From Candidatus Poribacteria bacterium (GTDB lineage: Bacteria; Poribacteria; WGA-4E; WGA-3G), in NCBI GenBank assembly GCA_964291315.2, contig OZ219753.1:3008001-3072000 (forward strand): a stretch of DNA of 64,000 nt, read 5' to 3'. The notes below the pieces were generated by a model, which was given only the letters and a program-made list of their open reading frames with translations, ran no database searches and was not told the origin of the DNA. The translations under genes and the position numbers were made by a program. Of this stretch, positions 2,812-62,099 are shown piece by piece. Within the stretch, counting starts at the first letter, position 1. Each line of letters starts with the position of its first letter.

Positions 2812-4821
2812 ATGACCCAAGAACTTTCTTTAAAACGAACCCACTATTGCGGTGACCTACGTCTAGCAGACGCGGGCACTCAGGCGAGTCTTAACGGTTG
2901 GGTGAAGCGTCGTCGCGACCACGGTGGGATCATCTTCGTTGATCTACGCGACAGAACGGGTATCACGCAAGTCGTCTTTGACCCGCAAATTGACGAGGAA
3001 GCACACACTATCGCGGAGGCTGTCAGAAGCGAATATGTCTTGCATGTCAGCGGCACCGTCCGTGAACGGGAACCGGGTGAACTCCTTTTTCATGCAGATG
3101 CGGCTTACCAAGGAGAGCTGAGTAGTGGTAATCTGTCTCCGGCGTTCTGTGCGTTGTTCTCCGATGTTGCCCCGAAATATGCTCTTTCCGGTGCCATTGA
3201 AATCGCAACGCGAGTGCCTAGTGAGCGTTGGCTACTCATGGACAGAGAAAATAATCGGACGTATCACATCGAAAAGGGAGAAAGCGGGCTCAGTATCTAC
3301 CAAGGCACTGTTAACCCTGAGCTCAACACTGGTGAGATTGAGCTCGCCGTGGGGGTGCTGAACATCTTGAACAGTGCGAAAACACCGCCGTTTCCAGTTG
3401 AAGACGACATCGACGTAGCGGAGGATATTCGGATGCGCCATCGTTTCATCGATTTACGTCGTCCTGAGATGCAGAAGACTTTGGCGATACGTCATAAGGC
3501 AGCACTCGCTGCGCGCAACTACATGAACGAACAGGGATTTTTGGAAATAGAGACTCCTATCTTGATGAACAGTACACCCGAGGGTGCGCGCGATGTGCTT
3601 GTTCCGAGTCGCCATTATCCTGGGAAGTTTTATGCCCTGCCGCAATCTCCGCAGCAATTCAAGCAAATTCTCATGATGAGCGGGGTCGATCGCTATTTTC
3701 AGATCGCGCGATGCTTCCGGGATGAGGATACGCGCTCCGATAGACAGCTGGAATTCACACAACTTGACATTGAGATGTCATTCGCGGGTGCGGACGATGT
3801 ACTTCAAGTAACCGAAGGTCTGATGAAGCGCATCTTTGAGGAAGCAGGGAACATCCGTCTCCAACCCCCGTTCATGAGACTTTCTTACTCGGAGTCGGTG
3901 GCACGTTTTGGAAACGATAAACCCGATACACGATTCGGCATGGAGCTAACGGAGCTGTCGGATGTGATGAGAGACTGCGATTTTCAGGTATTCAACCGGA
4001 CTTTGGAGACCGGTGGACAGGTCAAAGCCATCGCCGCCCCGGGCGGTGCAGACTTCTCCCGCAAAGAGATCGAGGATTTAACGAAGTTCGTGGCTATCTA
4101 CCGAGCAAAGGGTTTGGCATGGGTTAAAGTTACGGCAGACGGGTTTTCTTCCGGTATCGTCAAGTTTTTCACAAGAGAACAACTTGAAACCGCCAGAGCG
4201 CGGACGGGGGCGAAGCCGGGCGATATCCTCTTTTTTGTCGCTGACAAGCCGAGTATCGTCGCCGATGCCCTCGGTAATCTGCGTCTCCATCTCGGAAAAC
4301 AGCTTAACCTTATTGATGAAGCCCAATACAATTTCTTGTGGATTGTTGACTATCCGCTCTTTGAATGGAACGCGGAAGAGAATCGCTATGAACCGTTCCA
4401 CCACCTATTTACGGGATGCACGGAAGAGACTTTACCGCTGCTAGACACCGATCCGGGGGGTGTCCAAAGCCAACACTACGATCTCGTCTGCAACGGTTAT
4501 GAAATCTGTAGCGGGAGTGTCAGGATCCATCAGTGGGATGTCCAACAGAAAGTTTTCGATATTTTGGGGATTACCCCCGAAGAGGTTAAAAACCGTTTTG
4601 GGTATTTCATAGATGCGCTGGCGTATGGTACCCCGCCGCATGCGGGGATCGCCCCGGGCTTGGACCGCATTGTCATGCTCATACGCAACGAGGAAAACAT
4701 CCGGGAAGTCATCGCGTTTCCGAAATCACAACAAGGACTTTGCCCGCTGACACAGGCCCCCTCGGTTGTAACAGATGCACAATTAGAGGAATTGTCCATT
4801 CGTGTTGATGCCCAATTCTAA
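2812..4821 (+). CDS. aspS: Aspartate--tRNA ligase with a 76-aa in-frame insertion in the anticodon-binding OB fold
   Basis: RTHYCG, RRRDHGGIIFVDLRD, TPEGARD, ALPQSPQQFKQILM, RYFQIARCFRDED, YGTPPHAGIAPGLDR, IREVIAFPK. Confidence 0.97.
   Translation: MTQELSLKRTHYCGDLRLADAGTQASLNGWVKRRRDHGGIIFVDLRDRTGITQVVFDPQIDEEAHTIAEAVRSEYVLHVSGTVREREPGELLFHADAAYQGELSSGNLSPAFCALFSDVAPKYALSGAIEIATRVPSERWLLMDRENNRTYHIEKGESGLSIYQGTVNPELNTGEIELAVGVLNILNSAKTPPFPVEDDIDVAEDIRMRHRFIDLRRPEMQKTLAIRHKAALAARNYMNEQGFLEIETPILMNSTPEGARDVLVPSRHYPGKFYALPQSPQQFKQILMMSGVDRYFQIARCFRDEDTRSDRQLEFTQLDIEMSFAGADDVLQVTEGLMKRIFEEAGNIRLQPPFMRLSYSESVARFGNDKPDTRFGMELTELSDVMRDCDFQVFNRTLETGGQVKAIAAPGGADFSRKEIEDLTKFVAIYRAKGLAWVKVTADGFSSGIVKFFTREQLETARARTGAKPGDILFFVADKPSIVADALGNLRLHLGKQLNLIDEAQYNFLWIVDYPLFEWNAEENRYEPFHHLFTGCTEETLPLLDTDPGGVQSQHYDLVCNGYEICSGSVRIHQWDVQQKVFDILGITPEEVKNRFGYFIDALAYGTPPHAGIAPGLDRIVMLIRNEENIREVIAFPKSQQGLCPLTQAPSVVTDAQLEELSIRVDAQF
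3079..3306 (+). other. Inserted ~76-aa module, copy 1 (in aspS)
   Basis: Splits the canonical 'REREPG|TVNPELNTGEIE'; insert ELLFHADAAYQGELSSG...RWLLMDRENNRTYHIEKGESGLSIYQG. Confidence 0.85.
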
Positions 4822-4927
4822 GGCAAGCCGCTTGTGATTGTCGGAAACCATCGTCTGAACTTGAACGCTTAGACGTTAAGATATCTTTTATTAATTATTA
4901 GACACCAACCTCATAAAAAGGTAAAAT

Positions 4928-7201
4928 TTGATGCAACGTACAAAAAAACGACATATTTTCATTGGTAGTGCTCTGCTTTTCTTGATAGCACTGAACACAC
5001 CTGCACAGACCGTCAACATTCCTGACGCTAATCTACGTAAAGCGATTAACGAGGAGCTTGGGAAGCCCGCAGATGCCCAGCTTACACAGGCCGAGATGGC
5101 AAGGTTAACCAGTCTCAATGCGAATGCTAAAGAGGTCAAGAATTTAAGAGGGCTTGAAGCTGCAATAAGACTGGAAGTTTTATATCTTAACCGCAACCAA
5201 ATAACTAACCTATCGCCTATTGCAGGATTGGTTAGATTAAATCGGATAGAATTAGGCCATAACACTATATCGGATATATCCCCCCTTGAAGCCCTTATCA
5301 GCTTGGAGAACCTACGCATTGACAATAATTCGGTATCGGATATATCCCCCCTTGAAGCCCTTATTAGTCTACGGAGCATAAATATTGGGCATAACGTTGT
5401 GTCCGATTGGTCTCCCCTTGCGGGTTTAATGAAACTCGATTACATAGCGATAAGTCACAACCCTGTTGCAGATCTGTCGCCTCTTACAGGACTCAGGAAC
5501 CTAAGAACCTTTCACTCTTGGGGTACACGTATATTAGACATTGCGCCGTTGTCTAAATCTCCGAAGATTCAGGAGATAAGTATTTGCGGAGGAGACATAT
5601 CGGACATCTCGTCCTTGGAAGGGGTAACAAGTTTGAGAGACCTCTATCTTCCAAACAACGATGTCACTGACATTTCCGCTTTGGCGAGTTTAACAGGCCT
5701 GACACGCCTAGGTCTTAAAGACAATGAAGTGTCGAATATATCAGTCCTTAAAAAGTTAAGAGGTCTGACCTGGGTGGACCTGAGAGCTAACGCAATTTCA
5801 GATGTTACTCCACTTTCAGAGCTATCTAATTTGAGCTGGTTAGATATTAGTCTAAATAGTATAACGGACGTATCCGCTCTCACCTTTTTACCTAACCTAA
5901 GATGGTTGGGGCTTAACAAAAATCCGATAGCGGATCTATCCACTTTAGAAAGGTTTTCCACGAAGACGGCTATCTCACATTCGGATTTCGCTCCCACTCC
6001 TTTCCCAGAAGCCGGCCCGAAAATAGAGGATCACTGGTTATGGGTGATTGTGCCAGGGACAGCGATTGGCAAGGCCGATCTACTCGCGCGAGCAAGCGGT
6101 GGGGCCGCAACAGAGGTAAAGGTCGCTACGTTTGGCGCGAAAGAAGACAAGGCAGTCGGCAGCAGCGTCTGGACAGCTCATCGGCTCCCGGCCACGGGCG
6201 GAGATAACCTCAATGAAATGACGGATGCCCTCGGTTGGGGATCCGGTTCGGAGATATATGACCATGTGGTCTACGGATCTGTCTCGTTAGAGTCGCCCCG
6301 TCAACAGAAAACGACGATGCTCGTCGGCAGCGATGACGAGGTAAAGGTCTGGCTTAACGGCGAAGTGGTCCATTACAACCCCGTGCTTCGCGGCGCTGGA
6401 GATTATCAAGATGCATTCCCGGTCAAGCTGAAGAAAGGAACAAATGTGCTATTAGTCGCGGTTAGCAACCGCGGACATGGCGCATTCAGTGGTTTCTTCG
6501 GTTTCGCGAAGGACACAGACTACACGCTAAACGCCCCAAGCACCCCGATTAAAATAGAGGTTGCTACATGGGACGTGAACAGAGACGGACTGGTGAACAT
6601 TTTAGACCTGATTCTGGTGGCTCGGGACTTAGGAAAGACCGCCCGGGAGGCTCTCTCAAGAACGGACGTAAACGGTGACGGAAAGCGAAACATCTTAGAC
6701 CTGAGGCTTGTGGCTCAACATTTAAACGAGGCATCGGGTGCTGCTGCCCCGGCCGCGGCGACCTCGGACGAATTTACAAGCACAGACCCAATTTCGGCAG
6801 AAAGGGTCAGAGCCTGGATAGCACAGGCTCAAGCGCAAAGCGACGGTTCCCTCGTCTTCCGGCAAGGTATTGCGAATCTCAAACGTCTCCTCGCCTCTCT
6901 GGTCCCTGACAGAACCGCAGTGCTGCCCAATTACCCCAACCCGTTCAATCCAGAGACGTGGATACCGTATCAACTCGCTGAAGCAACCGAGGTCACAGTG
7001 CATATTTACGCAGCTAACGGAGCCCTGGTTCGGACGTTGGATCTCGGACATCAGCCGGCAGGACGCTATCAGGAACCGAGCCGCGCAGCATATTGGAACG
7101 GCGAAAATGAGATCGGTGAACCTGTCGCAAGCGGGGTGTATTTTTATACACTCACCGCAGCAGACTTCACCGCTACGAGAAAAATGGTGATACTGAAGTA
7201 A
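4928..7201 (+). CDS. Secreted internalin-like LRR protein with PA14-like, dockerin-like and FlgD-Ig/T9SS-like C-terminal domains
   Basis: Signal peptide; cap 'IPDANLRKAI'; 22-aa LRRs 'N.ISDISPL..L..L..L.L'; 'GSDDEVKVWLNG...LKKGTN'; 'WDVNRDGLVNILDL'; 'NYPNPFNPETWIPYQL...VASGVYFY'. Confidence 0.88.
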   Translation: MMQRTKKRHIFIGSALLFLIALNTPAQTVNIPDANLRKAINEELGKPADAQLTQAEMARLTSLNANAKEVKNLRGLEAAIRLEVLYLNRNQITNLSPIAGLVRLNRIELGHNTISDISPLEALISLENLRIDNNSVSDISPLEALISLRSINIGHNVVSDWSPLAGLMKLDYIAISHNPVADLSPLTGLRNLRTFHSWGTRILDIAPLSKSPKIQEISICGGDISDISSLEGVTSLRDLYLPNNDVTDISALASLTGLTRLGLKDNEVSNISVLKKLRGLTWVDLRANAISDVTPLSELSNLSWLDISLNSITDVSALTFLPNLRWLGLNKNPIADLSTLERFSTKTAISHSDFAPTPFPEAGPKIEDHWLWVIVPGTAIGKADLLARASGGAATEVKVATFGAKEDKAVGSSVWTAHRLPATGGDNLNEMTDALGWGSGSEIYDHVVYGSVSLESPRQQKTTMLVGSDDEVKVWLNGEVVHYNPVLRGAGDYQDAFPVKLKKGTNVLLVAVSNRGHGAFSGFFGFAKDTDYTLNAPSTPIKIEVATWDVNRDGLVNILDLILVARDLGKTAREALSRTDVNGDGKRNILDLRLVAQHLNEASGAAAPAAATSDEFTSTDPISAERVRAWIAQAQAQSDGSLVFRQGIANLKRLLASLVPDRTAVLPNYPNPFNPETWIPYQLAEATEVTVHIYAANGALVRTLDLGHQPAGRYQEPSRAAYWNGENEIGEPVASGVYFYTLTAADFTATRKMVILK
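5268..5364 (+). repeat. Recent tandem duplication of one LRR unit (31 identical nt, 66-nt period)
   Basis: tatcggatatatccccccttgaagcccttat at 5268-5298 and 5334-5364. Confidence 0.9.
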
Positions 7202-7288
7202 GATGAAAATAGCTATCAGCAGTTCGCGAAATATCTTCTACACTGCCTGAGAACCTACAATCAATAGCGACCGCAGAGGAGAAACTGT

Positions 7289-10200
7289 ATGAAACACGTC
7301 ATCACAATTAGTTGCCTTCTCCTACTTATCGTAGGATATCAGACCGTTGAGGCACAAGGGAAGTTCCCACCACAGGTACAGGCTATTTTTGAACGGAATT
7401 GCCTTAACTGCCATGGCCCACATGGTGCTTTTACAGAGCAGATTGTTATTGAATCTCGGGACAGGTTGATTAGCTCGGGGTCTGTTGTGCCCGGGCGCCC
7501 TTCGCAATCCGAACTCTATACACGGCTGCTGGAGGAGGATTCGGCAAAACGGATGCCGCTGGGGCAACCTCCGCTCACGCCGGCTGCGATTAACACCATC
7601 CGACAGTGGATTGACGCAGGCGCGCGAAGTGTGAACAATGGTCATCCAAGAGACTTCATTCCGAACGATGCGATGCTTGCTGCTATGCAGCGCCATCTGG
7701 CGACGCTTGATGGGTTTGATCGTCCTTACGCGCGTTATTTCACAACAACGCACCTCTACAACGCCGGTGAGGCCGCTGGTGCCCTGAGTGCGTATCAGGT
7801 CGCCCTCTCAAAACTGGTCAACAGCCTCTCCTGGGGGTTCGAAATACACAACCCAGAGCCTATTGGCGCGAAGAACACGATCTTCTACATTGATCTGCGT
7901 GACTACGAATGGGACAGAGTCGATGCCTGGACAGAGATAGAAAACGCCTATCCGTATGCTATCGAGTACAATGAAGTGACCCAATCCGAGGAGCTTGCAA
8001 AGCTGACCGACCTGCAAACACAGATGAAATGCGAAGTGCCCTTTGTTCATGTGGATTGGTTCTTGGCAAACGCCGCCTTACCGCCGCTATATCACGACAT
8101 TCTGGATTTGCCAAAGACAGATCGGGAGTTGGAACGCAAGCTGGACGTAGATGTTCAACGTAACCTCCAGACTGCGCCGGGCGTGCGCGTCTGGCGTGCG
8201 GGCTTCAACGACTCGGGGGTTTCAAACAACAATCGTGTTGTGGAACGGCACACCTCTCGCTATGGTGCGTATTGGAAGAGCTATGACTTCGCAGGTAGCA
8301 CGGGAACACAGAACGTTTTCACGCATCCGTTGTCTTTCAAAGCGGATGGGGGTGAGATCATCTTCAATCTGCCGAACGGTCTGCAGGCGTACTATATCCT
8401 AGACGCGTCAGGGAATCGTTTAAACTCGGCCCCCCCGGAGATTGTTATTGATCCGTCGGCGCGTGATCCTATTGTCCACAATGGTTTGTCGTGTATCGGC
8501 TGCCACACGGAAGGGACCAAGAGGTTTGAGGACGAGGTGCGTGGGGTCATAAACCGGACGGTGAATCCGGGTTTTGACAAGGCGCAAGCATTGCGTCTAT
8601 ACGTAGAGCGGGCGACGATAGAGGGTCTTCTTGCACAGGATAGCGAACGTTATAGGGTTGCCTTGGAGGCGACAGGCGGCGTTTTTGGCGGTATTGAGCC
8701 CGTGCATCGGTTTCATGAGGCATTTCGGGGGCCTGTTGAAGCCCCGGAGGCTGCTGCGGCTGTAGATATGAAGACGGAGGCGTTCCTTGCAGAGATTCGA
8801 AACAAACCAAGCCTACAGCGTTTAGGGTTGACTCCCTTGTTAAGCGGTGGGACTGTGAAGCGGGACGTTTGGACGGAACGGTTCAAGGACGTGGTTTTAG
8901 AGATCTTTTCACCAAATGGGCCTGTGGACTGCCATGAAACAGATACGTGTGATCCACCTCCCCCCGACACACTAGACCCGAACCTCCGAGCAGCGATTGT
9001 GGAAGCCCTCAGGCTAGCACCAAGCGAGTTAATTACTGAGGAAACTATGAAACGTTTGACGCGTTTGGTCGCCGATCGTAAAGGCATCCGTCACCTAACA
9101 AGGCTGGATGAGGCAATAAACCTGGAGCGGATAGAGCTCCGCTACAATGCCATCTCCGACCTCACGCCCCTGAAAGATTTGAGACGATTGAACGATATCA
9201 AGTTACGCGGGAACAGAATAACCGATGTATCGCCGCTGGCCGGGTTGATTAATGTAGGTTGGCTCGGGCTCGAAGATAACGAAATTACGGATGTATCGCC
9301 GCTGCGGGAGCTGGTCAAATTGAACGGGATAGGGATCAGCGGGAATCCGGTATCGGATATCTCCGCTCTGGCGAGTCTGATCAGCTTGGAAGGCATCGCG
9401 GCGTGGAACACGTCTATTTCAGACTTCTCGGCTTTAGCCAGATTGCCGAGACTCCGATGGATAGAATTTGGCAACGATAAGTCAATAACAAGATTGCCAT
9501 CTCTGAAGGAGTTAGGTGGGCTCAGGCGGTTGGAAATTAACAACTGCAGCATCTCGGATATCTCCGCCCTGGCTGCATTAACACAGTTAACCACATTAAA
9601 ATTAAACGGCAATTTTATATCGGATCTATCGCCGCTCACACAGTTGAAAAACTTAACCGATCTGCATCTTACCCGAAATATCATATCGGACGTGTCACCG
9701 CTGCGAGGGTTAACCGGATTGCGAGAGCTGTATCTTGATGAAAACATTATATCGGAGGTATCGCCCCTTGCAAGGTTAACTAACTTGAATACCTTACAGC
9801 TTAAAGGGAACGCGATATCCGACTTCTCACCTTTGAAAGGCTTGCCCGCCGACACTTATGTCGGGATGGAGAGAAACCCTGCGTTCCCAACGGGCGGCCC
9901 CAAAATAGCCGGACCTTGGCTATGGGCAATCGTTCCCAGTGCAGGTTTTTTAGAGGGTAAAGATTTGCTTGCTCAAGCAACCAACGGAGCAGTGACAGAA
10001 GAGAAGGTCTCTACCAATGGCGCGACGGCGGGCAAGGCTGTCGGCGACAGCCTCTGGATTTCCAGTACTATCAAGACAGGATATGGGAACAATCTTAACG
10101 AAGTGCTAGATCTCTTCGACCTTGAAATAAGTGAAGGCGATAAATGGGAATGGGTCATGTATGGCGTTGTGATCTTGGATTCACCACGGGAACAAAAGGT

Positions 10201-11458: not shown

Positions 11459-11473
11459 TGATAGTTAGCGCCC

Positions 11474-11530
11474 AGTAGTTAAAGGGAGCATTGCCCGTTC
11501 GCGGCGCGCGATGAATTGCGGCACTACAAA
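11474..11530. repeat. Degenerate REP-like palindromic element
   Basis: agtagt...gcattgcccg ttcg cggcgcgcgatgaattgcggcactac, an imperfect inverted repeat with gtagt/actac ends just after a stop codon. Confidence 0.4.
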
Positions 11531-11578
11531 CGGGATTTCAATTCAGAAAATCAGTAATAAAAAGGAGTCAAATACGCT

Positions 11579-47451: not shown

Positions 47452-47751
47452 GAAAAAAGTGCATCAGTTGAAAATTTCCTAAAAGTGTAGTATTAAGCAG
47501 AGAACTTGTCAACTTTAATTTGATCTACTCCGTCTCCCTATGGTATAATAAATACCTAAATTCTGAAAAGAACCGATGCCCCTTTCTTCACATTTTCTTA
47601 AAACTTCATAGCAACAGCGGTCTTCGGACACAGTTGAAGCATCATCTTTCATGGAATATTGGGAGGGAATTGGTTTGATCCGATCTATACGTTGCTGGTA
47701 TCCGCGCAACCAGGACTCTTAACAATAAGACAGAGGGATGGAGAAAGTATC

Positions 47752-49962
47752 ATGGATCGTTCCCATAACAGACACCGTTCAGTGCGTGCATTGCTCTTTG
47801 CCGGTATTATCCATCTGAGTCTTGCTATCGTCTTTATGTTCTCTTTTTACGCGGACAGACAAATACGGAATGAAGACGCGCTAGCAGTGGAATTGATTAA
47901 TTCGAAATCTTTTCGAGAACAGCGTCGCACGCTCAAATTGCCGCCCCCCAAAGAAATTTTCGCCCCTCAGCGGCCCGATGACTCCACTGATGCACATCAA
48001 CGTCATTTAGATTTACACGCTGCTGCCGATTTAATAGATGAGACGATCCATCAATCAGAGGCAGAGCTTCTCCAGAGTGCGACTGCATCTATATCAAACA
48101 CCGAGACCACACCTCCGTACGTGACGACCTATGCAGCGCGGTTCAATAGCCGCGAAACACCGATCGCTGAATCGGTGGACGTTCCGTTCCAAATCTCCGC
48201 TGGGGCCGGTATAGAGAGCTTACGGCAACGCGTTAAAGGTGCCAGCGACGGATTTCGCAAACTGGAATCTACCGGGGCTTCTGAAATCGGAAAGATCGGT
48301 GTCGGTAATGGCGGCGACAAAGGCGATGGGAGTGGCGACGGAAAAGGTCGCAATCCATTCGCCAAAGCACTCAAACGTATCGCTGACCATATCGTTGGCA
48401 CACGCCAATTGGAGAAAGTAAACGTTGTATTTGTGCTCGACACGAGTGCCAGCATGCGTGATAATATCCAAGAAGTCGCCTCGAATCTGTATGCGATGAC
48501 CGATGAATTCGATCTCATCAACTTAGAATATCACCTCGGGATGTGCGAATTCAGTGTCCGGCGTGAAGGCCAGAAGCTTGAAATCCGCTCTCTGTTACCC
48601 GACGTTGGCATGCTGCGGAGACGAATGCAAAAAGCAACGCTCAGCGGCAACGAACACGCCCTTGATGCCCTTACGGATACACCAAATTATATCGACTTTC
48701 ACGCCGATGCAGATAAATATGTCGTCCTCGTAACCGATGAACCCGCATCTACACATCTGAGAAAAGCTGGGGCTTACACAATAATGCGACAAAAGGTGAT
48801 CCAACAATATCAACTTGAGGAGATTAGCGTTAACGTGCTTGGACATCCAGAGCTGTTTCAGCAAGAGTTAGCAGAAAAAACAGGCGGGCTTTGGCAGCTA
48901 ATTCCCGGAGACATCAAGAACGCAACCACACTTCCGAGCAACCGTGTTGCCAACGAAGGGTTTATGAAGGTGTTTCGGGATATCGTCACTGATCTGCGAC
49001 GCAACAGTGGCAAACTGCTATTCAGTATGGAACCACAGTTTGAAGTTCTCCTCGAAGACGCAGATGTGCCGATAAAGAAGATACAACGTGAATTCCGACA
49101 AAACGGGATCCGCTTAGCAAACATGGATAATCTGTTTGGAAGCGCTACGGTCTGGGAAAAACAGAAGGGTGCCTTATGGGTCGTTACAGACTACGCTAAC
49201 GGACGTATCTACACGATCCGCAAAGAGGACAACAAGTTAAATGTCTATTCCGGTATTTACCCTGAAAGTTGGAACGCCTCTACAAATCTTACTGCTATGA
49301 CGCAAAAACAGGGGCGGAGATGGCTCATAAACGATTCGAATCGACAACGTATGTTCACCGTCCGCAGTGAAGACAATCGATTGAATATCTACGATGGCGC
49401 AGCACTCAGTACATCCTCTGATAGGGAAGTGCGCGGATACGAACCAGCTGTGGATATCGTCATCATGCTAGATTACAGCCGGAGTATGGGTGGGAAATCT
49501 CAAGCTATCACGCTCGGTTTAAGCACCTTGTTCGGCAGGTTAGACATTCTACCGATTAACTACCGCATCGGGCTCATCCGGTTCGCAGAAGCGAAAGATG
49601 CAATTAAAGTCATTAACGGTGTTTCGGTCACACAGATGCCACTCAACAAAGCGATCTTAGAAAGCTACATGGAGGCCCCGTTCGGTGGCGATGAACATCT
49701 TATTGACGCAATCGTAGAAGGGATTCCGAAAGTAAAGTTCAGTCCTTACGCCAGCCGATTTTTGCTCATTCTGACAGACGAACCGACAACCGGAAAATAC
49801 CCACCTGAACGAGCTCTGAATCTCTGTCAATCGTTAGGTATCCGTGCTTATATTATCGGGCATCCGGGACCCGCAGATTTTCAAAAAACACTCGCTGAAG
49901 AGACTGGCGGTCGTTTCTTTACAATGCCGAAGCATTTGAGGCAGTCGTATCCAAATCAATAG
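47752..49962 (+). CDS. Membrane-anchored double vWA domain protein (start probably ATG 47752)
   Basis: N-terminal TM 'IIHLSLAIV'; MIDAS DTSASM and DYSRSM; two 'TDEP'. Confidence 0.85.
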   Translation: MDRSHNRHRSVRALLFAGIIHLSLAIVFMFSFYADRQIRNEDALAVELINSKSFREQRRTLKLPPPKEIFAPQRPDDSTDAHQRHLDLHAAADLIDETIHQSEAELLQSATASISNTETTPPYVTTYAARFNSRETPIAESVDVPFQISAGAGIESLRQRVKGASDGFRKLESTGASEIGKIGVGNGGDKGDGSGDGKGRNPFAKALKRIADHIVGTRQLEKVNVVFVLDTSASMRDNIQEVASNLYAMTDEFDLINLEYHLGMCEFSVRREGQKLEIRSLLPDVGMLRRRMQKATLSGNEHALDALTDTPNYIDFHADADKYVVLVTDEPASTHLRKAGAYTIMRQKVIQQYQLEEISVNVLGHPELFQQELAEKTGGLWQLIPGDIKNATTLPSNRVANEGFMKVFRDIVTDLRRNSGKLLFSMEPQFEVLLEDADVPIKKIQREFRQNGIRLANMDNLFGSATVWEKQKGALWVVTDYANGRIYTIRKEDNKLNVYSGIYPESWNASTNLTAMTQKQGRRWLINDSNRQRMFTVRSEDNRLNIYDGAALSTSSDREVRGYEPAVDIVIMLDYSRSMGGKSQAITLGLSTLFGRLDILPINYRIGLIRFAEAKDAIKVINGVSVTQMPLNKAILESYMEAPFGGDEHLIDAIVEGIPKVKFSPYASRFLLILTDEPTTGKYPPERALNLCQSLGIRAYIIGHPGPADFQKTLAEETGGRFFTMPKHLRQSYPNQ
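49012..49398 (+). other. Inserted module copy 2 (49012-49254) plus a second partial copy (~49285-49398) between the vWA domains
   Basis: KLLFSMEPQFEVLLED...LWVVTDYANGRIYTIRKEDNKLNVYSG; RWLINDSNRQRMFTVRSEDNRLNIYDG. Confidence 0.75.
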
Positions 49963-52940: not shown

Positions 52941-53063
52941 GCGTTATCGCGAGTTAATGCGTCTAATTTTTATATTGTAATTGTTGACAAATTTGTGAAG
53001 ATATGTGATAGTACAAATCCAAGTTTAGACCTAAATTACAGAAGGTTCAAAGGAGGCATGACA

Positions 53064-54236: not shown

Positions 54237-54263
54237 GACGAGCAGCTGTCAGCTATCCGTTGC

Positions 54264-54302
54264 TAGCGCGTAGGGAAGAAACACTGAACGCCCTACGCGC
54301 TA
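54264..54302. terminator. 12-bp perfect stem between convergent genes
   Basis: tagcgcgtaggg...ccctacgcgcta. Confidence 0.65.
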
Positions 54303-54323
54303 AACGTTGAATGTTGACAGCTA

Positions 54324-55310
54324 TCAGGCAGGGGGCGCGATCAGACGTACGAAGGAACGAGAAACCTTATCTAACTCTTCGCGAACGGCTGCATCCAATT
54401 CCCAACCGACACCCCCAATCGTATCGTCAAGTTGTTCAATTGTGTCGCTCCCACTAATGGCGATAGTGACCTCTGGATGTGAGAGCACCCACGCCACTGC
54501 AAGTTGTGCAGGCGTTTTACCTAACTCGGCTGCGAGTCGCTTGAGCGTTGAAATGACTTGTCCAGTGGCACCGCTCATCCGCTGCGAAAATTCATGACGT
54601 AATCGTGTTGCCCATAACGTACCAGCGGGTGGCGGTTCATCAGGAGCATAGACACCGCTCAACAAGCCGACAGCCAGTGGGCTGTAACACATGACTCCCA
54701 ACCCTTCCTCGCGGACTAGACCGAACATCTCAGTCTCTAAGTCGCGATTCAGGAGGTTATACATATTCTGAACACAGATATAAGACGTTGCGTTGATCCT
54801 ATCAGCGATCCAGAGCCCCTTACACACCTGCCATGCCTGATGATTACAGCAACCGATATATCGTACCTTGCCTGAACGCACCAGATCGTCCAAGGCGCGA
54901 ATCGTTTCTTCTTGTGGTGTGGTCTCATCATACGCATGCATGAGATAGACATCAATACGGTCGGTGTTGATTCTCTTCAAGGAGCGTTCCACCTCACGCA
55001 TGATATGGTAGCGTGACAACCCGGCATCGTTTGGACCTGGCCCCATCCGACTGGAAACCTTTGATGTAATTACGACATCATCGCGTTTGCTGCGAATCGC
55101 CCTCCCCAGAACTTCCTCAGACTGCCCAATATTGGCACGATCATCCATAAACCCATAGATATTGGCACAATCGATGAGATTAATACCCGCATCGATAGCG
55201 TATTCAATCAGTCTTTGAGCGGCATCGGCATCACCTTGTCCTCTGAGTCCCAAGCCTAAGGCAAGTGGACTCACTTTAACGCCTGTTTTTCCAAAATTGA
55301 CATACTCCAT
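54324..55310 (-). CDS. Aldo/keto reductase
   Basis: GINLIDCANIY, SEEVLG, SLKRINTDRIDVY, GKVRYIG, YSPLAVGLL, PAQLAVAW. Confidence 0.93.
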   Translation of the reverse strand: MEYVNFGKTGVKVSPLALGLGLRGQGDADAAQRLIEYAIDAGINLIDCANIYGFMDDRANIGQSEEVLGRAIRSKRDDVVITSKVSSRMGPGPNDAGLSRYHIMREVERSLKRINTDRIDVYLMHAYDETTPQEETIRALDDLVRSGKVRYIGCCNHQAWQVCKGLWIADRINATSYICVQNMYNLLNRDLETEMFGLVREEGLGVMCYSPLAVGLLSGVYAPDEPPPAGTLWATRLRHEFSQRMSGATGQVISTLKRLAAELGKTPAQLAVAWVLSHPEVTIAISGSDTIEQLDDTIGGVGWELDAAVREELDKVSRSFVRLIAPPA

Positions 55311-55338
55311 AGATAGATTCCTCAGCGGTTGTCGGTTT

Positions 55339-56316
55339 TTAGTCAGTGTTTCGAAACCTTCGTAATGTGTCTACGACCCGTTGCATATCTTTGGGCATCG
55401 GGGCTGAAAAAGTTAAGTTCTTGCCTGTAACCGGATGCACAAATCCGAGAAGCCGGGCATGCAACGCCTGCCGGTTAAGACTGACGAAGGCCTGCCTCAG
55501 TTCAACCGTGTGTGCATCGTTTAAGGCGCGTTGCTCGCCGCCATAAATCGCATCACCAGCGACTGGATGCCCGATGTGTTGTAGATGCACGCGAATTTGA
55601 TGTGACCGTCCGGTCTCCAAGGTGAGTTGAACGAGGGCGAATTTAGAATAGGTTTCCAAGACTTCATAGTGCGTGACGGCATGTCTGCCGCGGGCTTCAA
55701 CCGTTGTCATCCGTCGTCGGTCCCGCCGACTTCGGGCAATGCGGGCAGCTATCGTGCCAACGCTCCGAGCTGGTGTCCCGCATACGACAGCGACATACTG
55801 TCGGGTAATACTATGACGTTCAAATTGAACAGATAGCCCGCGATGTACGCTATCTGTCTTCGCAACAACCAGAGTCCCTGAAGTATCCTTGTCCAATCTA
55901 TGGACAATCCCTGGCCTCTCCAATCCACCGATACCGGACAAGTCTGGGCAGTGAGCGAGTAAGGCATTGACAAGCGTTCCGAGATTCACGCCGTTTGCAG
56001 GATGAACAAGCATCCCTGCTGGCTTATTCAGGACAATCAAGTGGCTATCCTCGTAAAGGACATCGAGAGATATATTTTCAGGTGGTACAGTATCCAAAGG
56101 ACGCGGTGCGGGAACCGTCATACAGACGCTGTCACCGCGTTTAAGTTGATAACTCGGTTGCTTAGCGACTTCGTTGTTGACGGTGACCTCACCATCGCGA
56201 ATGAGCTTCTGGAGATAGTTCCGAGATATACCTTCGGTTGCACTGATTAGGAACTTATCCAAACGGGTGCCGTGCTGCTCTTCTTGGATGTGATAACTGT
56301 GTGTTTGACCCATCAA
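55339..56316 (-). CDS. rluD: RluA-family 23S rRNA pseudouridine synthase with S4 domain
   Basis: RLDKF, NKPAGMLVHP, GIVHRLDKDTSG, LETGRSHQIRVH, RQALHA. Confidence 0.93.
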   Translation of the reverse strand: MMGQTHSYHIQEEQHGTRLDKFLISATEGISRNYLQKLIRDGEVTVNNEVAKQPSYQLKRGDSVCMTVPAPRPLDTVPPENISLDVLYEDSHLIVLNKPAGMLVHPANGVNLGTLVNALLAHCPDLSGIGGLERPGIVHRLDKDTSGTLVVAKTDSVHRGLSVQFERHSITRQYVAVVCGTPARSVGTIAARIARSRRDRRRMTTVEARGRHAVTHYEVLETYSKFALVQLTLETGRSHQIRVHLQHIGHPVAGDAIYGGEQRALNDAHTVELRQAFVSLNRQALHARLLGFVHPVTGKNLTFSAPMPKDMQRVVDTLRRFRNTD

Positions 56317-56355
56317 TTTCGTCTACGCCTCACGCCACCGCCGCCGGAACCTCCG

Positions 56356-57150
56356 TTACATCAAATACTCACGCTCCCGGAAAATTCTGATAGCGAGGTA
56401 CAGCAGCACACTTGTTAGCAAACCGATGACCAGAAGTGAGGCCCAGGCGGGTGGTGGTGAAAGCCCCAAGAGTACATTAAGTTCACTCCGGGGTAGCTTG
56501 TAACTTGGAAATAAGGTGAAAAGGTAATGTGACACAGATAATCGCTTAATTGTTGTTGTCATTAGTGAGCTTGTGGTAACGTTTTCCCAACCCATCACAA
56601 ATAGTAGCCCCCATAAGACAGGGTTCTTAAACCTCGCTGCCAAAAGTACCGCGAGCGCGCCGTAAGCTAACAGTGCCAACGCCATTGATGCTGTGTAATG
56701 CAAACTCATTCCAAATTGAAAGAATACGCCTTTCCCCAATTTGGGGTGTGTCACCATGATGCCGGTTAGAATTAGGTGTGAGGCAGCAATGAAAGCAACT
56801 GTTCCGGAAAGATAGGCTGCGAACTTGGTCAGAAGAATTAACGATTTACGGAGCGGCCGCATCTGGAGATACATCAACCCTTTGCTCTCAATCTCATCGG
56901 AAATGACTGCAGCCCCATAAAAAATTGCACATAACTTTACCCAGAGCCCGTATAGAATCAGTGTCATCAGCGGAATGAACCGGTTTACCATTCCGCTGCT
57001 CCGTGCAACAAAACGAAACACAAGGGCAATCACAATCGGTAGGAGGCACCCAAGCAGTATTAACAAGGTTCGGCGGCTCCAGAACATCTGCCGGAATGTT
57101 ACCTTAAAGAGAGCGAAATAGGCGGGAAACGACTTAGCGTTGATAGCCAT
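56356..57150 (-). CDS. ABC-2-type transporter permease
   Basis: Six TMs; 'ISDEIESKGLMYLQMRPL...LLTKF'. Confidence 0.8.
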   Translation of the reverse strand: MAINAKSFPAYFALFKVTFRQMFWSRRTLLILLGCLLPIVIALVFRFVARSSGMVNRFIPLMTLILYGLWVKLCAIFYGAAVISDEIESKGLMYLQMRPLRKSLILLTKFAAYLSGTVAFIAASHLILTGIMVTHPKLGKGVFFQFGMSLHYTASMALALLAYGALAVLLAARFKNPVLWGLLFVMGWENVTTSSLMTTTIKRLSVSHYLFTLFPSYKLPRSELNVLLGLSPPPAWASLLVIGLLTSVLLYLAIRIFREREYLM

Positions 57151-57417
57151 TTAAAACCTTTCAGCAGAGAAAATATAGGAGCATAGTAGCATTAATTTTC
57201 AGACTCCGCAAGCTTTTTCCGGCCCATTGGTCGTCAACAGACACCAACCGGCAGGAATCGGGACTCAGCGTTTCCGTTCTACAAGAAGAACGGATTGTAA
57301 AATTAAGCGCAGATATGGTATGATACCCTATCAATATCCAGATTTTCTGCGATTCAGGAAACAAGAGGCGATAGGTTCTTTTTCTGTTTCTTGCTGCATT
57401 ACTTGGAGGATGTAGAA

Positions 57418-58269
57418 ATGAATCAGCACGATTTCACTGTTACGGATTCAGAAATTGATTTTTTTCAGATGTTCGGTTACCTCAGTTTTCCACAACTGAT
57501 GGCAGATCGGATCACGGCGATCCAGAACGCTTTTGAAACGGTCTGGTGTGAGAGGGGCGGTGGTCATAACGGTAAGCCACACGAAGGCACCGCCCGTTCA
57601 TGTATCGTTCCATTTATTGATCAGCATGAAGAGCTCTGCTCACTCCTTGAGGATCCGAGGATCCTTGCAATTGCGAAGGCGTTGCTCGGTGACGATTTCA
57701 ACTATATGGGCAGCGACGGTAACTTCTACGTCGGCAATACCGGCTGGCACTCGGACGGGGGACATAAGCTGGAAGACCCGATGCACATAAAGGTTGCATT
57801 CTATCTAGATCCGCTGACGCGCGACACCGGGGCACTTCGCGTCATTCCAGGGAGTCATCTGTTCGGCGACAACTACGCAGATGGACTCACGAAACGGGTC
57901 GGGAAGAGCCAAGAAATATGGAAAATACATGGACAAGACGTTCCAGCAGTGGTTTTTGAGACAACCCCGGGCGATCTAGTGTTGTTTAATCACAACACCA
58001 AACACGCCGCTTTCGGTGGTGGAACACGCCGACGTATGTTCACTATCAACTTGTGTCAACGATACCCTGAGGACAAGTTGGACGCGTTGCAAGCTTATAT
58101 CAGCGGCTCTGCCCGGTTCTGGCTCGATCGAAAGTATGGCGAAAAAATGGTGCAGACGGCAACCCCAGAACGGCGGATACACCTCGAACAAGTCAGGGCA
58201 AACGATGGACACTTGGCTGAACTCTCCCGGCAGGCACGGAAACGGATGCATGAACCGTCACGCGGATGA
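57418..58269 (+). CDS. PhyH family dioxygenase (start revised to 57418)
   Basis: RBS ggagg; 'FGYL', WHSD, 'YLDPL...GALRVIPGSH', 'PGDLVLFNHNTKHA'. Confidence 0.88.
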   Translation: MNQHDFTVTDSEIDFFQMFGYLSFPQLMADRITAIQNAFETVWCERGGGHNGKPHEGTARSCIVPFIDQHEELCSLLEDPRILAIAKALLGDDFNYMGSDGNFYVGNTGWHSDGGHKLEDPMHIKVAFYLDPLTRDTGALRVIPGSHLFGDNYADGLTKRVGKSQEIWKIHGQDVPAVVFETTPGDLVLFNHNTKHAAFGGGTRRRMFTINLCQRYPEDKLDALQAYISGSARFWLDRKYGEKMVQTATPERRIHLEQVRANDGHLAELSRQARKRMHEPSRG

Positions 58270-59088
58270 CACCTGTTGCCAAGTTTCTCGAACATAACCG
58301 ATTGCGTGTTCAAAACCGACTTCCCCTGAACGACTGGCCTCTTCGATGCTAAGCCAGCCATCATAACCGGCCTGTTGCATACGAGAAAAGACCGCTGGAA
58401 TCGGTGAGGCGCCGGTGCCAATACGAACCGCTTCGAACGCTCCTACTTCGCGTATATCGAAGATATGAAGCACAACGATGCGTTCAATAACTTTTTCCAA
58501 AAGAGCCAGCACATCTTCGCCGAGGACGAGTGGATTTGCTGTATCGAAACAGACACCGAGAGGCGTATCCGAAAGGACAGATAGAATTTCCAAGAAAATT
58601 TCTGCAGGTTGTGAGAAGTCCCAATAATCCCACGGGGCACCTTTAGTGTGGTTCTCGTAAGCGAGGGTTATACCGCAGCTTTCAGCCTCGTCAAGTGCGC
58701 GGCGAAATCCTTCTGTTACCCAGCTGATTCCTGCCGCGCGCTCGACCCCCGGACGGTTTTGCCCTGCGGTGATACGGACGAATGTTGCACCTAACGTTTT
58801 TGCTAAGGCGATGTCTGCCTTTAGATCGATTAACGCTTGTTGCCGCCGGGCCGCCTCGGGATGCGTGAAGTCGGAGTAACAGGCGAGCATGCACAGCTGG
58901 ACATCGAATTTTTCAAGGACAGCAACCGTGTGATCCAACGTTGTTATATCGCGTTCCGGGAAAAATTTGATGCTAAAATCGACGGCATCTAACCTTAATT
59001 CTGCCCCGAATTGAATCCAATCCGCAACACTGCTTTTTCCGGAAAAGATGTCGTCGTAAAGAGAAACGGGGAGACAACTGAGCTTCAT
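58258..59088 (-). CDS. Sugar phosphate isomerase/epimerase (TIM barrel)
   Basis: LAYENH, FDTAN, LHIFD, IGTG, GYDGWLSIE. Confidence 0.88.
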   Translation of the reverse strand: MKLSCLPVSLYDDIFSGKSSVADWIQFGAELRLDAVDFSIKFFPERDITTLDHTVAVLEKFDVQLCMLACYSDFTHPEAARRQQALIDLKADIALAKTLGATFVRITAGQNRPGVERAAGISWVTEGFRRALDEAESCGITLAYENHTKGAPWDYWDFSQPAEIFLEILSVLSDTPLGVCFDTANPLVLGEDVLALLEKVIERIVVLHIFDIREVGAFEAVRIGTGASPIPAVFSRMQQAGYDGWLSIEEASRSGEVGFEHAIGYVRETWQQVSSA

Positions 59089-59196
59089 GATCTGTTTTCC
59101 TTCTTTTTTTTATGCGGTGTAGTTATCTTAGTCGTAACGCGAGCTTGCTAATTATTTGGCTCCTCTTTGGATACAGAGAGCCCTGGTAGAACCGAA

Positions 59197-59250
59197 GAGG
59201 TTTTGTGAGAAGAGCTGAAGCAGCACAGACTCACAGTCTATGCTACAAGT
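59197..59250. repeat. Dispersed ~54-bp repeat, copy 2
   Basis: gaggttttgtgagaagagctgaagcagcacagactcacagtctatgctacaagt. Confidence 0.85.
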
Positions 59251-59263
59251 TAAGCGAATATCT

Positions 59264-61186
59264 TTAGAACATAAACCGGTACATCGGACGTTCCAAACCG
59301 ATGCCGATTAATGTCCAAATCGCCCCGACGGTGAATTCTCCTATAACCAATCCGATAAAGAACGGCATTGCCCGGCGATAGGTACGCAGACCGCCTGCCT
59401 GAAAGAGGATCGCTTTTATCCCCCACGATAAAAAGATTGAAAACCAATACCAACTTGTGTTCCAAAAACTGAGCGACAGTGCGTAGCCTGCGGGGTGGAA
59501 GGGCCACCAAATAAAACGCCGGCGCAGCATCATCAGGAGCGTCGTCAAGGTGATAGCCCCGCTCGAAGCGGAGACAGCGCCGATATCTACGGATTGCGGG
59601 TTAATGAGCCACTGCTTCAGCTGCTCATAAGTCCAGCGGCATTGCGCCTGCTCCCCATAGACCGCACCACCATAACGGTAACCTTGCGCGTAATACGCCC
59701 ACGCTGACGAAATAGTAGCGACAACGGTTACTAAGATAATAGCAACAATAAATCGATTATCTGCAAACCCACGGACCTGCGCTACTTTGAAACCCTCCAG
59801 CATAATCGGCATCGGATGCGAACGGTAGGATCGGTTAAAGCCGTGAAACATACTGAACGTCGTCAACCCCTCTGCCCCGATACGGCGCGTTCCGAAAAAG
59901 GAGACCAGCACTTTGTCGGGGCGCCAAGGCACGTCGTGTGCGGGCGGGCCAACTTCCGCGCGAACCCGGGTAATCGCAACTGCCAATGCGAAAAAGAGGA
60001 GAAAATAACCGAAGATGCTGAAGATAGGTGTCCCGGTGCTTTTGAAAAAGTAGAGCACAAAGAGACTACCGGCTATCAAGCCGAGTATTGCGTATCGCGT
60101 GTGTGTTGCGTGTGTACGGATAGTGTCGTCCTGTGCCTTGCCGCTCCGGAAGGCATTTTTCACCTGTTCTGTGATGAACTTTCGAGTGAGCCATATAGCG
60201 GAGATGCCTAAGCAGAACCACGCCCCAAACGACTGGGCATCCAGAAACGGAAATCCCGGCAGATGCCCGATGCCAGCCATCGTCCCCCATACGCGTGTTA
60301 GCTTGTGGAAGAGGTAAAAAAACCAGATAGAGAATGAAAGATCTAAGGGTATGAAGAAGCTCATCCCGATCGCAAAGGGATAGACAGCGATGGGCAGCGT
60401 TCCGATGGCGCTCAGCGGTTTTGTCTGGAAGTACTGACCCAAGTTGTAAAGCTTCCCACCTAATCCTGGCACAACTGGAAACAGAAAGTGGAGTCCGTTA
60501 AAGAGATTCATACCACCGGCAAGCACAGCAGCGAATAGGAATAAACGGTTTCTCAGGAGTGTACGTCCACCTTTTTCTGTTAGATGTAACGGAATCTGAA
60601 TAGTTGGATAACTCAACTTCTCATGGCTCACCCATTGGTGTCGGACTAGGACAGTGATGCAGAGCATCATACAGACTAGCACGATGATGAGAGCTGACCA
60701 CCAGAGAATTGGGCTCATCCAGAGCTGTAAGTGTTGCGCGGTGTGAAGAGATGAATCTCCGTGATAAAAAGTCGCCAACATACCCCGCTCTTTGATAGTG
60801 AGCCAATCTGGCATGTGCTGGCGGAACAGCTCGCCCCACTCATTCTCTGGACTTGCAAACCAGATCGGATAGGCAATTAGGGGCCACAAGATTTGAAGTG
60901 TATCATGTCCCGCGATAGAGGAGGCAATGGATACAAGTAGATAGATCACCATCAATTCAGCATCAGTGAAGCTGGCGTTCTTGCGGATTGCCCGGAGTAA
61001 CGGGTTTATCGCCATCAGGATCAGTATCACAAAGATGACATTGAAATAGAGGGTTGTGACGGTGGGGAAACTCTGACCGGTGCTATATCCACTGGGTCCC
61101 CAGTTAATCATGAGCCAGTAAGAGTTTGGAATAGTAATAAGGAGCGCGAGCAGCACAGCACGGAAACTAACATCTCTGTTCAGCAT
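59264..61186 (-). CDS. DUF6785/DUF6784-type polytopic membrane protein (peptide-transporter-like)
   Basis: 'SFRAVLL', 'ELMVIY', 'QWVSHEKLSYP', 'RVRAEVG', 'WWPFHPAGY', 'PFFIGLVIGE'. Confidence 0.75.
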   Translation of the reverse strand: MLNRDVSFRAVLLALLITIPNSYWLMINWGPSGYSTGQSFPTVTTLYFNVIFVILILMAINPLLRAIRKNASFTDAELMVIYLLVSIASSIAGHDTLQILWPLIAYPIWFASPENEWGELFRQHMPDWLTIKERGMLATFYHGDSSLHTAQHLQLWMSPILWWSALIIVLVCMMLCITVLVRHQWVSHEKLSYPTIQIPLHLTEKGGRTLLRNRLFLFAAVLAGGMNLFNGLHFLFPVVPGLGGKLYNLGQYFQTKPLSAIGTLPIAVYPFAIGMSFFIPLDLSFSIWFFYLFHKLTRVWGTMAGIGHLPGFPFLDAQSFGAWFCLGISAIWLTRKFITEQVKNAFRSGKAQDDTIRTHATHTRYAILGLIAGSLFVLYFFKSTGTPIFSIFGYFLLFFALAVAITRVRAEVGPPAHDVPWRPDKVLVSFFGTRRIGAEGLTTFSMFHGFNRSYRSHPMPIMLEGFKVAQVRGFADNRFIVAIILVTVVATISSAWAYYAQGYRYGGAVYGEQAQCRWTYEQLKQWLINPQSVDIGAVSASSGAITLTTLLMMLRRRFIWWPFHPAGYALSLSFWNTSWYWFSIFLSWGIKAILFQAGGLRTYRRAMPFFIGLVIGEFTVGAIWTLIGIGLERPMYRFMF

Positions 61187-61193
61187 CGTTTAT

Positions 61194-62099
61194 CTACCAA
61201 TTTGGATCGTAGTCCCATTGCACGCGCTGTCGCCCATAGGTTTTTCCGTCAATCTCGGTTTGGTGGCAGACGAGGCATCTATGGGAGTCGGTAACGCCGT
61301 GCAATTCGTGTGCTAAACGAATCTCCTCGGTATCGTGTTCGTGGCAGGTGGCACAGGTATAACTTTGATAGAAATTACCGGCGTAGATGGCGATTTTATC
61401 TTCAATTTTTCGTGCATGATAGGTGTGGTTGCTTTCAGTGTTTTTAATTGTCCACACGCTTCCCGCTTCTTTGATAGCAACGGGAGAAGTTTCGGGCACA
61501 CGACGATCATTCTGCAAGAGCCACCAGTGGAGGTCGTCCGGAACAGTGTCCGACGTATCCAATTCTTGCTGGAGCGCCACATCGACATGGAAGAGCAGCG
61601 GTTCAGAAGTATGGCATCTGGCACAAGGCACCTCATGAACACCGGTCAGCGGGAAGAAGTCATCGTGCTCAAGCTTTTTCTGACCGTGGAACACGATCCC
61701 AACAAGCAAGACAGGTGCAAGGATAAGATGGCACCGGAGGAGAATTCGGCGCGTACGACGCGCGGTTAAACTCACGGCGATACCGGTGCCTAAATTCAAT
61801 AACGCGAGCAGGAAGGTAACCCAAGAGTGCCATGCGATGGGCTGAAACGCCGAGTGCAGCAGCACAAGGCACAAGCCTAAGGAGGCAAGACGTTGATGAT
61901 ATTTTAGCCACGTCTGTCGGGACCCCCAACGCACCCAACGACTTCGAAGAATGTAGAGACCGGCGATGAAGATAGCGAGGGCGCCGATGATGCTGAGCAG
62001 GTGCCTCGCTTCGCCGAAGCTACCCGCCCGCCAAATACACAGAAATGAGATAACAGCGGCACCGATAAACCCATGTCCGATCTGAATAAATACTTGCAT
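61194..62099 (-). CDS. Membrane cytochrome b-like domain fused to a tri-heme cytochrome c domain containing an inserted module
   Basis: TM His pairs 'KYHQ...LLHS' and 'RCHL...VFHG'; CARCH, CATCH, CLVCH; 'FPLTGVH'. Confidence 0.75.
   Translation of the reverse strand: MQVFIQIGHGFIGAAVISFLCIWRAGSFGEARHLLSIIGALAIFIAGLYILRSRWVRWGSRQTWLKYHQRLASLGLCLVLLHSAFQPIAWHSWVTFLLALLNLGTGIAVSLTARRTRRILLRCHLILAPVLLVGIVFHGQKKLEHDDFFPLTGVHEVPCARCHTSEPLLFHVDVALQQELDTSDTVPDDLHWWLLQNDRRVPETSPVAIKEAGSVWTIKNTESNHTYHARKIEDKIAIYAGNFYQSYTCATCHEHDTEEIRLAHELHGVTDSHRCLVCHQTEIDGKTYGRQRVQWDYDPNW
61377..61604 (-). other. Inserted ~76-aa module, copy 3 (between heme motifs 1 and 2)
   Basis: EPLLFHVDVALQQELDTS...VWTIKNTESNHTYHARKIEDKIAIYAG. 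Confidence 0.8.

Follow-up and report, generated by a model that had tools for sequence, protein, structure and literature searches.

This study concerns a 64,000-nt stretch of the forward strand of Candidatus Poribacteria assembly GCA_964291315.2 (contig OZ219753.1, positions 3,008,001 to 3,072,000). It is referred to below as the window and corresponds to C4:3008001-3072000 of genome G000 (four contigs, 4.40 Mb). Three unrelated genes in the window share an in-frame segment of ~72–76 amino acids (aa), here called the module: aspS, which encodes an aspartyl-tRNA synthetase (AspRS); a gene for a protein with two vWA domains; and a cytochrome c gene. The genes and their module copies are given below in window positions, with E values from a profile hidden Markov model (HMM) of the module.

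2812..4821, + strand: aspS, encoding an AspRS of 669 aa with the Pfam domains tRNA_anti-codon, tRNA-synt_2, and GAD
3079..3306, + strand: aspS module copy in the OB-fold anticodon-binding domain, between ...REREPG and TVNPELNTGE, as placed by the translation and by orthologues
47659..49962, + strand: gene for a membrane-anchored protein of 767 aa with two vWA domains (Pfam VWA_2 256-360, VWA 599-756)
49012..49254, + strand: full vWA module copy of 81 aa between both vWA domains (E 5.5e-18)
49255..49398, + strand: partial vWA copy directly behind the full copy, covering model positions 35-75 (E 3.9e-8)
61194..62099, - strand: gene for a membrane-anchored tri-haem cytochrome c of 301 aa, hydrophobic at its N-terminus and bearing three CxxCH motifs (CARCH, CATCH, CLVCH)
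61377..61604, - strand: cytochrome module copy between the first and second CxxCH haem motifs (E 1e-18)

The aspS, cytochrome, and vWA segments and the half copy at 49255–49398 translate in the positions and frames given by an earlier reading of this DNA (the original prediction), and the similarity claimed among them is real. BLASTP between the window copies gave E values of 4e-11 (aspS/cytochrome), 3e-7 (cytochrome/vWA), and 3e-6 (aspS/vWA), and an HMM based on the four window copies alone retrieved further copies in G000 at E values of 4e-17, 9e-6, and 3e-3. In translation, the W-x10-[YF] and [YF]-x8-[LI] spacings are the same in all four copies. The aspS copy is 76 aa long, and the Pfam tRNA_anti-codon match in its host ends at residue 91; the cytochrome host shows a weak match to Pfam Cytochrome_C7 (E 0.002). 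Because it is sited between two vWA domains, the full vWA copy is an inter-domain module rather than a loop insertion. The partial copy behind it comprises the four C-terminal strands only, without β1 or the helices, and the same arrangement of full and partial copies is present in relatives from the genus.

An AlphaFold2 model of the aspS copy, built from a 49-row alignment, reached a predicted local distance difference test score (pLDDT) of 91.8 and a predicted template modeling score of 0.80. In the model, ~72 aa are arranged in the order β1-α1-α2-β2-β3-β4-β5, and the consensus reads LLFsvd..Fq.dLD.g.is.dLrqeFe.ngi.LS.n.tv....g.rWlItD.....Y.vrKe...LniY. Most conserved positions hold hydrophobic residues (L, F, F, W, Y, L), and one Asp follows the Trp strand, a pattern that looks more like the signature of a fold than like an active site. 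Comparison with known families, a match to which could have counted against the original prediction, returned no consistent Pfam family for the module alone (the top family matched 2 of 49 module sequences). Every NCBIfam family that was hit matched just one of the 49 sequences, the best match among PDB sequences had an E value of 0.19, Foldseek against the PDB returned nothing at E<=1e-3 (E>=0.34), and the ESM Atlas yielded no usable match to the module. The exhaustive VIA structure search found profilin, AFT2, and several KA1 domains, with a best Z of 4.7 and KA1 domains at 3.5–4.3, values that are not meaningful by the calibration of the tool. KA1/profilin-like folds (5iri_B, 5wi2_B, 5zza_P) resemble the module in packing one sheet of four to five strands against helices, but they differ in element order, with Z of 3.5–4.7 and 5–12% identity, and no membership is claimed. 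A description of the module was not found in literature on Poribacteria with domain insertion, novel domains, or repeat proteins; a passage search of Kamke et al. 2014 (PMC3909097) did not turn up the terms "insertion," "synthetase," or "pentapeptide." Judged by the predicted structure, the module is an unannotated domain that would fold autonomously. In two large proteins from the protein collections (P0006, 5820 aa; P0050, 2069 aa), 31–36 short stretches match only model positions 32-64, which hold the Trp and Tyr strands, with no full-module match locally; these stretches are probably a different β-hairpin repeat.

For the window, insertion-free orthologues were examined for aspS and the cytochrome. 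AspRS of GTDB families f1 and f2 and of genus g3 carries the module at the same site, in the pattern RER.EG / [DE]LL...VY[QL]G / T[VI]N. The AspRS proteins of three f4 genera and of five f3 genera other than g3 lack the module, as do those of three other phyla, represented by Thermomicrobium, Planktothrix, and one spirochaete, and these proteins read through as RERGE-G.(T/V)NPN. Orthologues of the cytochrome were found in 161 of 176 poribacterial genomes; the module is present in f1, f2, and f3, and the two halves of the protein are contiguous in f4 and f8 (C..CHTS-S.Y..YTC..CH). These comparisons confirm the earlier proposal that removing the module restores the host sequence in both genes. 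The same presence and absence was seen in other host proteins: SecA, RseP, and RpoB carry the module in G032 or G026, two complete genomes of family f3, and lack it in G000, with colinear flanks, and UPF0182, CtaA, and the DUF255 protein behave likewise by the coordinates of high-scoring segment pairs. The copies in AspRS, cytochrome, RpoB, SecA, and RseP are structural domain insertions, each with a colinear parent, and the module folds alone in the AlphaFold2 model of the aspS copy. The description of a discrete, tolerated, in-frame protein module with a fold of its own, offered in the original prediction, is upheld by that model together with the insertion-free orthologues. AspRS of genus g3 (L095, G026), which GTDB assigns to family f3, carries the module unlike other f3 genera (cf. 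L096, G037) and groups with f2 in a tree calculated from AspRS without the module (ultrafast bootstrap 94; deeper nodes, 25–30); transfer of a module-bearing allele, precise loss elsewhere, and a classification issue are all possible.

The opposite polarity, in which the module was ancestral in the host families and was lost elsewhere with nothing inserted, finds some encouragement in sigma-54, which carries the module in G000, G026, and G032, and in the vWA, Wzy_C, DUF4861, and YibE_F proteins, which carry it in all poribacterial families examined. It is at odds with the AspRS proteins of Thermomicrobium, Planktothrix, the spirochaete, f4, and most of f3, which are otherwise colinear without the module, with the Pfam models of host families, which span the sites without it, and with the occurrence of the module in >25 unrelated folds. 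For AspRS, cytochrome, RpoB, SecA, and RseP, ancestral presence is contradicted by insertion-free orthologues both inside and outside the phylum, and this explanation is highly improbable.

In-frame insertion in conserved genes would also fit an intein- or intron-like element excised at the RNA or protein level, and inteins and mini-inteins (Hint) share with the module their insertion at conserved sites of essential genes. However, the module starts with E-L-L-F, E-P-L-L-F, or K-L-L-F, ends with Y-Q-G, Y-A-G, or Y-S-G, and is followed by T, N, or I at position +1; there is no Cys/Ser/Ala start and no His-Asn end. Mini-inteins measure ~130 aa. At 76 aa the module is far smaller, its predicted β-α-α-β4 fold has no match to the Hint family in Pfam, and it occurs in tandem arrays and at protein ends as well. 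In two metatranscriptomic runs of one study, contigs of relatives (mostly <90% identity) bridge the 5' or 3' junction of the aspS module or carry a diverged segment of the same length, and no joint removing 3079–3306 was found in these two runs, from which rare spliced forms could escape. The runs contain only 0.05 of the sampled words, and the uncovered parts are not evidence. The module is retained in contigs from RNA libraries. The original prediction had already set inteins aside on the terminal residues, and the likelihood of any such spliced element is negligible.

A profile search of 1.84 billion proteins returned 2006 cluster representatives at E<=1e-3, of which 566 reached <=1e-10 and 36 reached <=1e-30. 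The best 150 of these 2006 hold 386 domain matches, often 2–7 per protein in tandem. AspRS proteins from Candidatus Poribacteria loci are 78–88% identical to the window AspRS. Among genomes, the module was found in all 41 relatives examined (GTDB species genomes) and in 167 of 176 poribacterial genomes (129 of the 133 of high quality), with 5–32 matches per genome within the order of the window and 1–14 in more distant module-bearing families; it is missing from family f5 (0/3) and from most of f8 (present in 2/8). Outside the phylum, 7 of 301 sampled cyanobacterial genomes carry it, four of them below 1e-10, and these copies are genuine by eye; none was found in 251 sampled genomes of Chloroflexota or in five assorted genomes. 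The module had been called lineage-specific, which is borne out as a strong expansion in Poribacteria but not as exclusivity, given the cyanobacterial copies. The cyanobacterial hosts are a DUF6519 protein, a Baseplate_J/Reg_prop protein, and a reverse-transcriptase open reading frame (ORF) with a partial match; this last ORF (L105, in G220 at C52:101123-104260) matches RVT_1 at E 1e-7 and is module-like over positions 13-58 at E 4.6e-9.

Within G000, a six-frame translation into 82,063 ORFs of >=30 aa was searched with the HMM from the four window copies, which was iterated, and then with a 49-sequence model. The final count was 13 domain matches in 10 ORFs. All 13 lie in frame in long ORFs, and no out-of-frame, short, or intergenic remnants were found among ORFs of >=30 aa, a search that cannot exclude remnants decayed beyond recognition. 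By Pfam, the hosts beyond the window are a DUF4861 protein, a Wzy_C O-antigen-ligase-like protein, a double YibE/F membrane protein, BamA (POTRA/Omp85), a HAMP/HisKA histidine kinase whose two hydrophobic segments flank the module, and sigma-54 with a diverged copy (E 5.5e-4). In addition, a membrane-anchored protein of 370 aa consists almost wholly of modules. The expectation of many more hosts genome-wide thus holds insofar as further hosts exist, but the genome contains only 10 host genes, which makes three of them in 64 kb a local coincidence. The vWA and cytochrome hosts are 12 kb apart in the window and ~18–24 kb apart in G016, G158, and G017, where aspS is far away; the three-host cluster is partly a conserved linkage of the vWA and cytochrome hosts and partly chance. 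The ORF adjoining aspS (window 4928-7201, + strand, 757 aa) has, in translation only, a long leucine-rich-repeat-like run (N.ISDISPL...) and a C-terminal sorting-like tail.

Hosts in other members of the phylum were collected by taking all module-bearing ORFs from the two complete genomes, G026 (f3, genus g3) and G032 (f3, genus g6). Those of G026 are UPF0182 and a HEAT-repeat protein (two copies each), a TPR protein, DUF4861, sigma-54, CtaA/COX15, an M23 peptidase, a DUF255/DsbD_N protein, Wzy_C, RseP, an ECF-sigma-WD40 protein, TamB, AspRS, the vWA protein, the cytochrome, and several unnamed ORFs. Those of G032 are an ABC exporter (two copies), a HEAT/PDZ protein, an AI-2E transporter, sigma-54, CtaA, a DUF5916/CBM9 protein, vWA, SecA, YibE/F, an S1/P1-like protein, DUF5683, Wzy_C, the cytochrome, and RpoB, in which the module occupies residues 346-420. 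The host sets overlap only partly between families, and gains or precise losses continued during diversification of the phylum. From the protein collections, a Pfam scan of 51 of the best 150 of the 2006 representatives assigned a family at E<=1e-5 to 30 of them. Ten of the 51 contain pentapeptide repeats; among the others are SpoIIE/dCache, HAMP/cNMP, caspase, Baseplate_J (three), cohesin/dockerin, MotB/OmpA, CHASE2, POTRA, UPF0182, Wzy_C+TPR, and metallophosphatase. A word-index search added SecA (P0155) and sigma-54 (P0162). More than 25 unrelated parent folds carry the module. In one G026 ORF (L111, C1:3352465-3352680), a TAG codon inside the module splits the reading frame into 470 and 103 aa and could reflect a pseudogene, a sequencing error, or recoding. 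The RpoB ORF of G000 (C4:898839-904172) is 1778 aa long, compared with 1400 aa in G032, with ~176 extra residues at the region of the G032 module and ~330 more downstream (subject 1149-1482); the module HMM has no match in either stretch.

Hosts are found in both cytoplasmic and extracytoplasmic proteins, as had been predicted. Attachment of haem c is periplasmic, and AspRS, RpoB, and sigma-54 are cytoplasmic; the module must therefore fold on both sides of the membrane. Since it works in cytoplasmic proteins such as AspRS, RpoB, SecA, and sigma-54 as well as in periplasmic or membrane proteins such as cytochrome c, BamA, TamB, and the sensor kinase, and since its conserved residues belong mostly to the hydrophobic core, the module is probably a non-catalytic structural or binding module and not an enzyme.

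A different account sees the copies as the coding trace left by a selfish mobile DNA element that inserts in frame. It would resemble Rickettsia palindromic elements (RPEs) but encode a stable fold, and it would have been active during poribacterial diversification and perhaps still be active somewhere. Such an element would enter genes as one discrete unit, favor loops that tolerate it, its own α1-α2 loop among them, and survive through folding that is independent of the host. At the DNA level, the copies speak against it. MAFFT alignment of the DNA of the three window copies revealed no conserved blocks and no alignment beyond that imposed by shared residues, which places the similarity at the protein level, and blastn searches of the complete genome with 12 module DNAs produced only a single chance match, of 35 nt. 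Terminal inverted repeats and target duplications, in line with a check suggested in the original prediction, were looked for and not found flanking the window copies. A 14-nt direct repeat does bracket the cytochrome module (61342-61355 and 61612-61625), but its coding strand spells the CATCH and CARCH haem motifs, and it is therefore not a target-site duplication. Also counting against a selfish element are the absence of out-of-frame or intergenic remnants from the six-frame HMM search of the genome, the absence of matches in plasmid and phage collections (tblastn with one 113-aa single-module query, of limited sensitivity), and the fact that no mobilising gene was identified. Like the module, RPEs are short, inserted in frame, tolerated by the host proteins, and spread over many unrelated genes of a single lineage, essential ones included; they differ in being palindromic DNA repeats that also occur in noncoding DNA, whereas the module is neither palindromic nor found there and has a conserved fold under purifying selection. 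RPEs were reportedly described by Ogata et al. in Science in 2000. On the searches of G000 and of the window copies given above, a DNA repeat of the RPE type or of the miniature inverted-repeat transposable element type was rejected, with no DNA similarity, no inverted repeats or palindrome, no target duplication, and no noncoding copies, and the analogy to RPEs drawn in the original prediction fails on the same DNA criteria, there being no consensus.

The age of the copies bears on the same alternative. Within each of three genomes, identity between copies in different hosts peaks at 44%, whereas one pair of tandem copies within a single protein reaches 54%. By ORF size, the hosts are the same in five additional genomes of the genus, which also show some weak matches in ORFs of ~1130–1160 aa that are lacking or below threshold in the smaller G000. 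The present insertions are old and vertically inherited. With no DNA similarity, paralogues at most 44% identical, a host set that is stable within the genus, and aspS and cytochrome insertions that are family-wide, the earlier description of the module as roaming or mobile in the present tense is not supported. Selection was assessed with 65 aspS sequences of the family, from which 150 random pairs were drawn; 71 were usable, and 19 had a synonymous substitution rate (dS) <1. The median ratio of nonsynonymous to synonymous rates (dN/dS) was 0.124 for the module and 0.035 for the rest of the gene, or 0.146 and 0.040 for the 19 pairs with dS<1, and amino-acid identity was 0.66 in the module and 0.90 in the remainder. 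By this comparison, purifying selection maintains the module peptide, under a constraint ~3.5 times weaker than that on AspRS.

Some module copies appear to lie within other module copies. In this nested pattern, an N-part (strand 1 and helix 1) is followed by a complete module and then by a C-part (helix 2 to strand 5), with the split always in the α1-α2 loop. The 370-aa protein of G000 has the order VYRFSLDPQYISNLNNHKLA, full copy, then DLKEAF...NVYQQ. Its relative P0013 (L001 family) contains an extra complete module within the inner copy, giving three levels, P0137 and P0109 show the same nested pattern, and SecA P0155 contains eight N-parts followed by eight C-parts. An N-like segment (>=5 bits, within the 32 residues upstream) precedes 5 of 9 full copies that have a C-only part directly behind them, compared with 2 of 260 other full copies. 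Six of the nine cases come from one protein family, and P0155 is a single Logan contig in which C-units 1/7 and 2/8 are suspiciously alike, so that independent nested cases number ~4. AlphaFold modeling of the L001 nested region (167 aa, with a 10-row alignment) gave a pLDDT of 48, too low to judge the pairing of the outer N-part with the outer C-part.

This nesting in the L001 family, P0137, P0109, and P0155 (5/9 against 2/260 controls) fits a selfish element, and so do insertions in AspRS, cytochrome, RpoB, and RseP that arose at separate sites and end exactly with the module. The occurrence in highly conserved essential genes (RpoB, SecA, sigma-54, AspRS, BamA), for which an adaptive benefit is difficult to conceive, the patchy, family-specific host sets, and the sporadic single copies in Cyanobacteria, some in Baseplate_J-like proteins, point the same way. 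The concentration of nested cases in one family and the doubts over P0155 weaken this support, as do the stable host set within the genus and the lack of any copies >44% identical in different hosts. A once-mobile or elsewhere-mobile selfish element is unlikely, though the module-exact ends and the recursive insertion into its own loop keep it viable. It is quite unlikely, too, that a piece of selfish DNA carries a self-folding "harmless" domain as its sole cargo and copies itself in frame into loops of any gene, essential ones included, and into its own α1-α2 loop, persisting because the fold shields the host protein from harm, as a fold-based analogue of inteins and RPEs.

Collectively, the results favor, with a probability of roughly 0.7, a promiscuous domain that spread through Poribacteria by repeated, ancient in-frame insertion and was retained by selection, rather than an intein or an active DNA repeat. 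During diversification of the phylum, the module was copied repeatedly, with in-frame insertion at loops on the surface of unrelated proteins, at linkers between their domains, and apparently also at loops of other module copies. Spread would have occurred by duplicative insertion of exactly the DNA that encodes the module.

Several points weigh against spread by ancient insertion and retention. Ordinary illegitimate recombination should carry along donor flanks or incomplete modules, but in at least six independent cases the insertion ends exactly with the module, and the nested copies are all split at one loop; exact ends and single-loop nesting are easier to reconcile with a discrete mobilised unit than with random shuffling, unless the ends were trimmed by selection. 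One gain in aspS is not separable from several, because the deep nodes of the AspRS tree have support of only 25–30, and dS is saturated in many of the pairs used for dN/dS (71 of 150 usable, 19 with dS<1). The RNA evidence consists of contigs of relatives at <90% identity from libraries that may contain DNA. No structural relative hints at function, the KA1/profilin-like matches reaching only Z 3.5–4.7, and expansion in Poribacteria rests on sampled genomes, most of the 2006 representatives being without taxonomy.

As an ancient, selectively retained insertion, the module has precedents. The GAD domain of bacterial AspRS (Pfam PF02938, present in this protein) is likewise an independently folding domain in a loop of a colinear parent. 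As a rule, an insertion domain keeps to a single parent family or a few of them, whereas the module has >25 unrelated parents in one phylum, in both compartments, and is found inside itself. To our knowledge, SBHM and BBM2 modules are confined to RNA polymerase, and the poribacterial module differs from them in occurring also in SecA, AspRS, BamA, and others. Lineage-specific insertions of SBHM or BBM2 modules in RNA polymerase β/β', said to have been reported by Iyer, Koonin & Aravind in 2004 and by Lane & Darst in 2010, are alike in placing a small β-rich module in RpoB of one lineage, here that of G032. Compared with inteins and mini-inteins, the module is too small, has neither splicing residues nor a Hint fold, is retained in RNA contigs, and also stands in tandem. 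The finding is a domain insertion of known type, on an unusual scale.

One small domain is found in RpoB, SecA, sigma-54, AspRS, BamA, TamB, RseP, and dozens more proteins of a single uncultivated phylum. This amounts to a natural experiment on the tolerance of essential proteins for domain insertion and raises the question of how domain-sized coding DNA gets copied so precisely. Presence or absence of the module at fixed sites is a sharp phylogenetic marker inside Poribacteria. If the module is inert, it would offer protein engineering a ready-made, insertable scaffold that is independent of compartment. If its copies bind a common partner, they would form a hidden network joining transcription, translation, secretion, and envelope biogenesis in these sponge symbionts.

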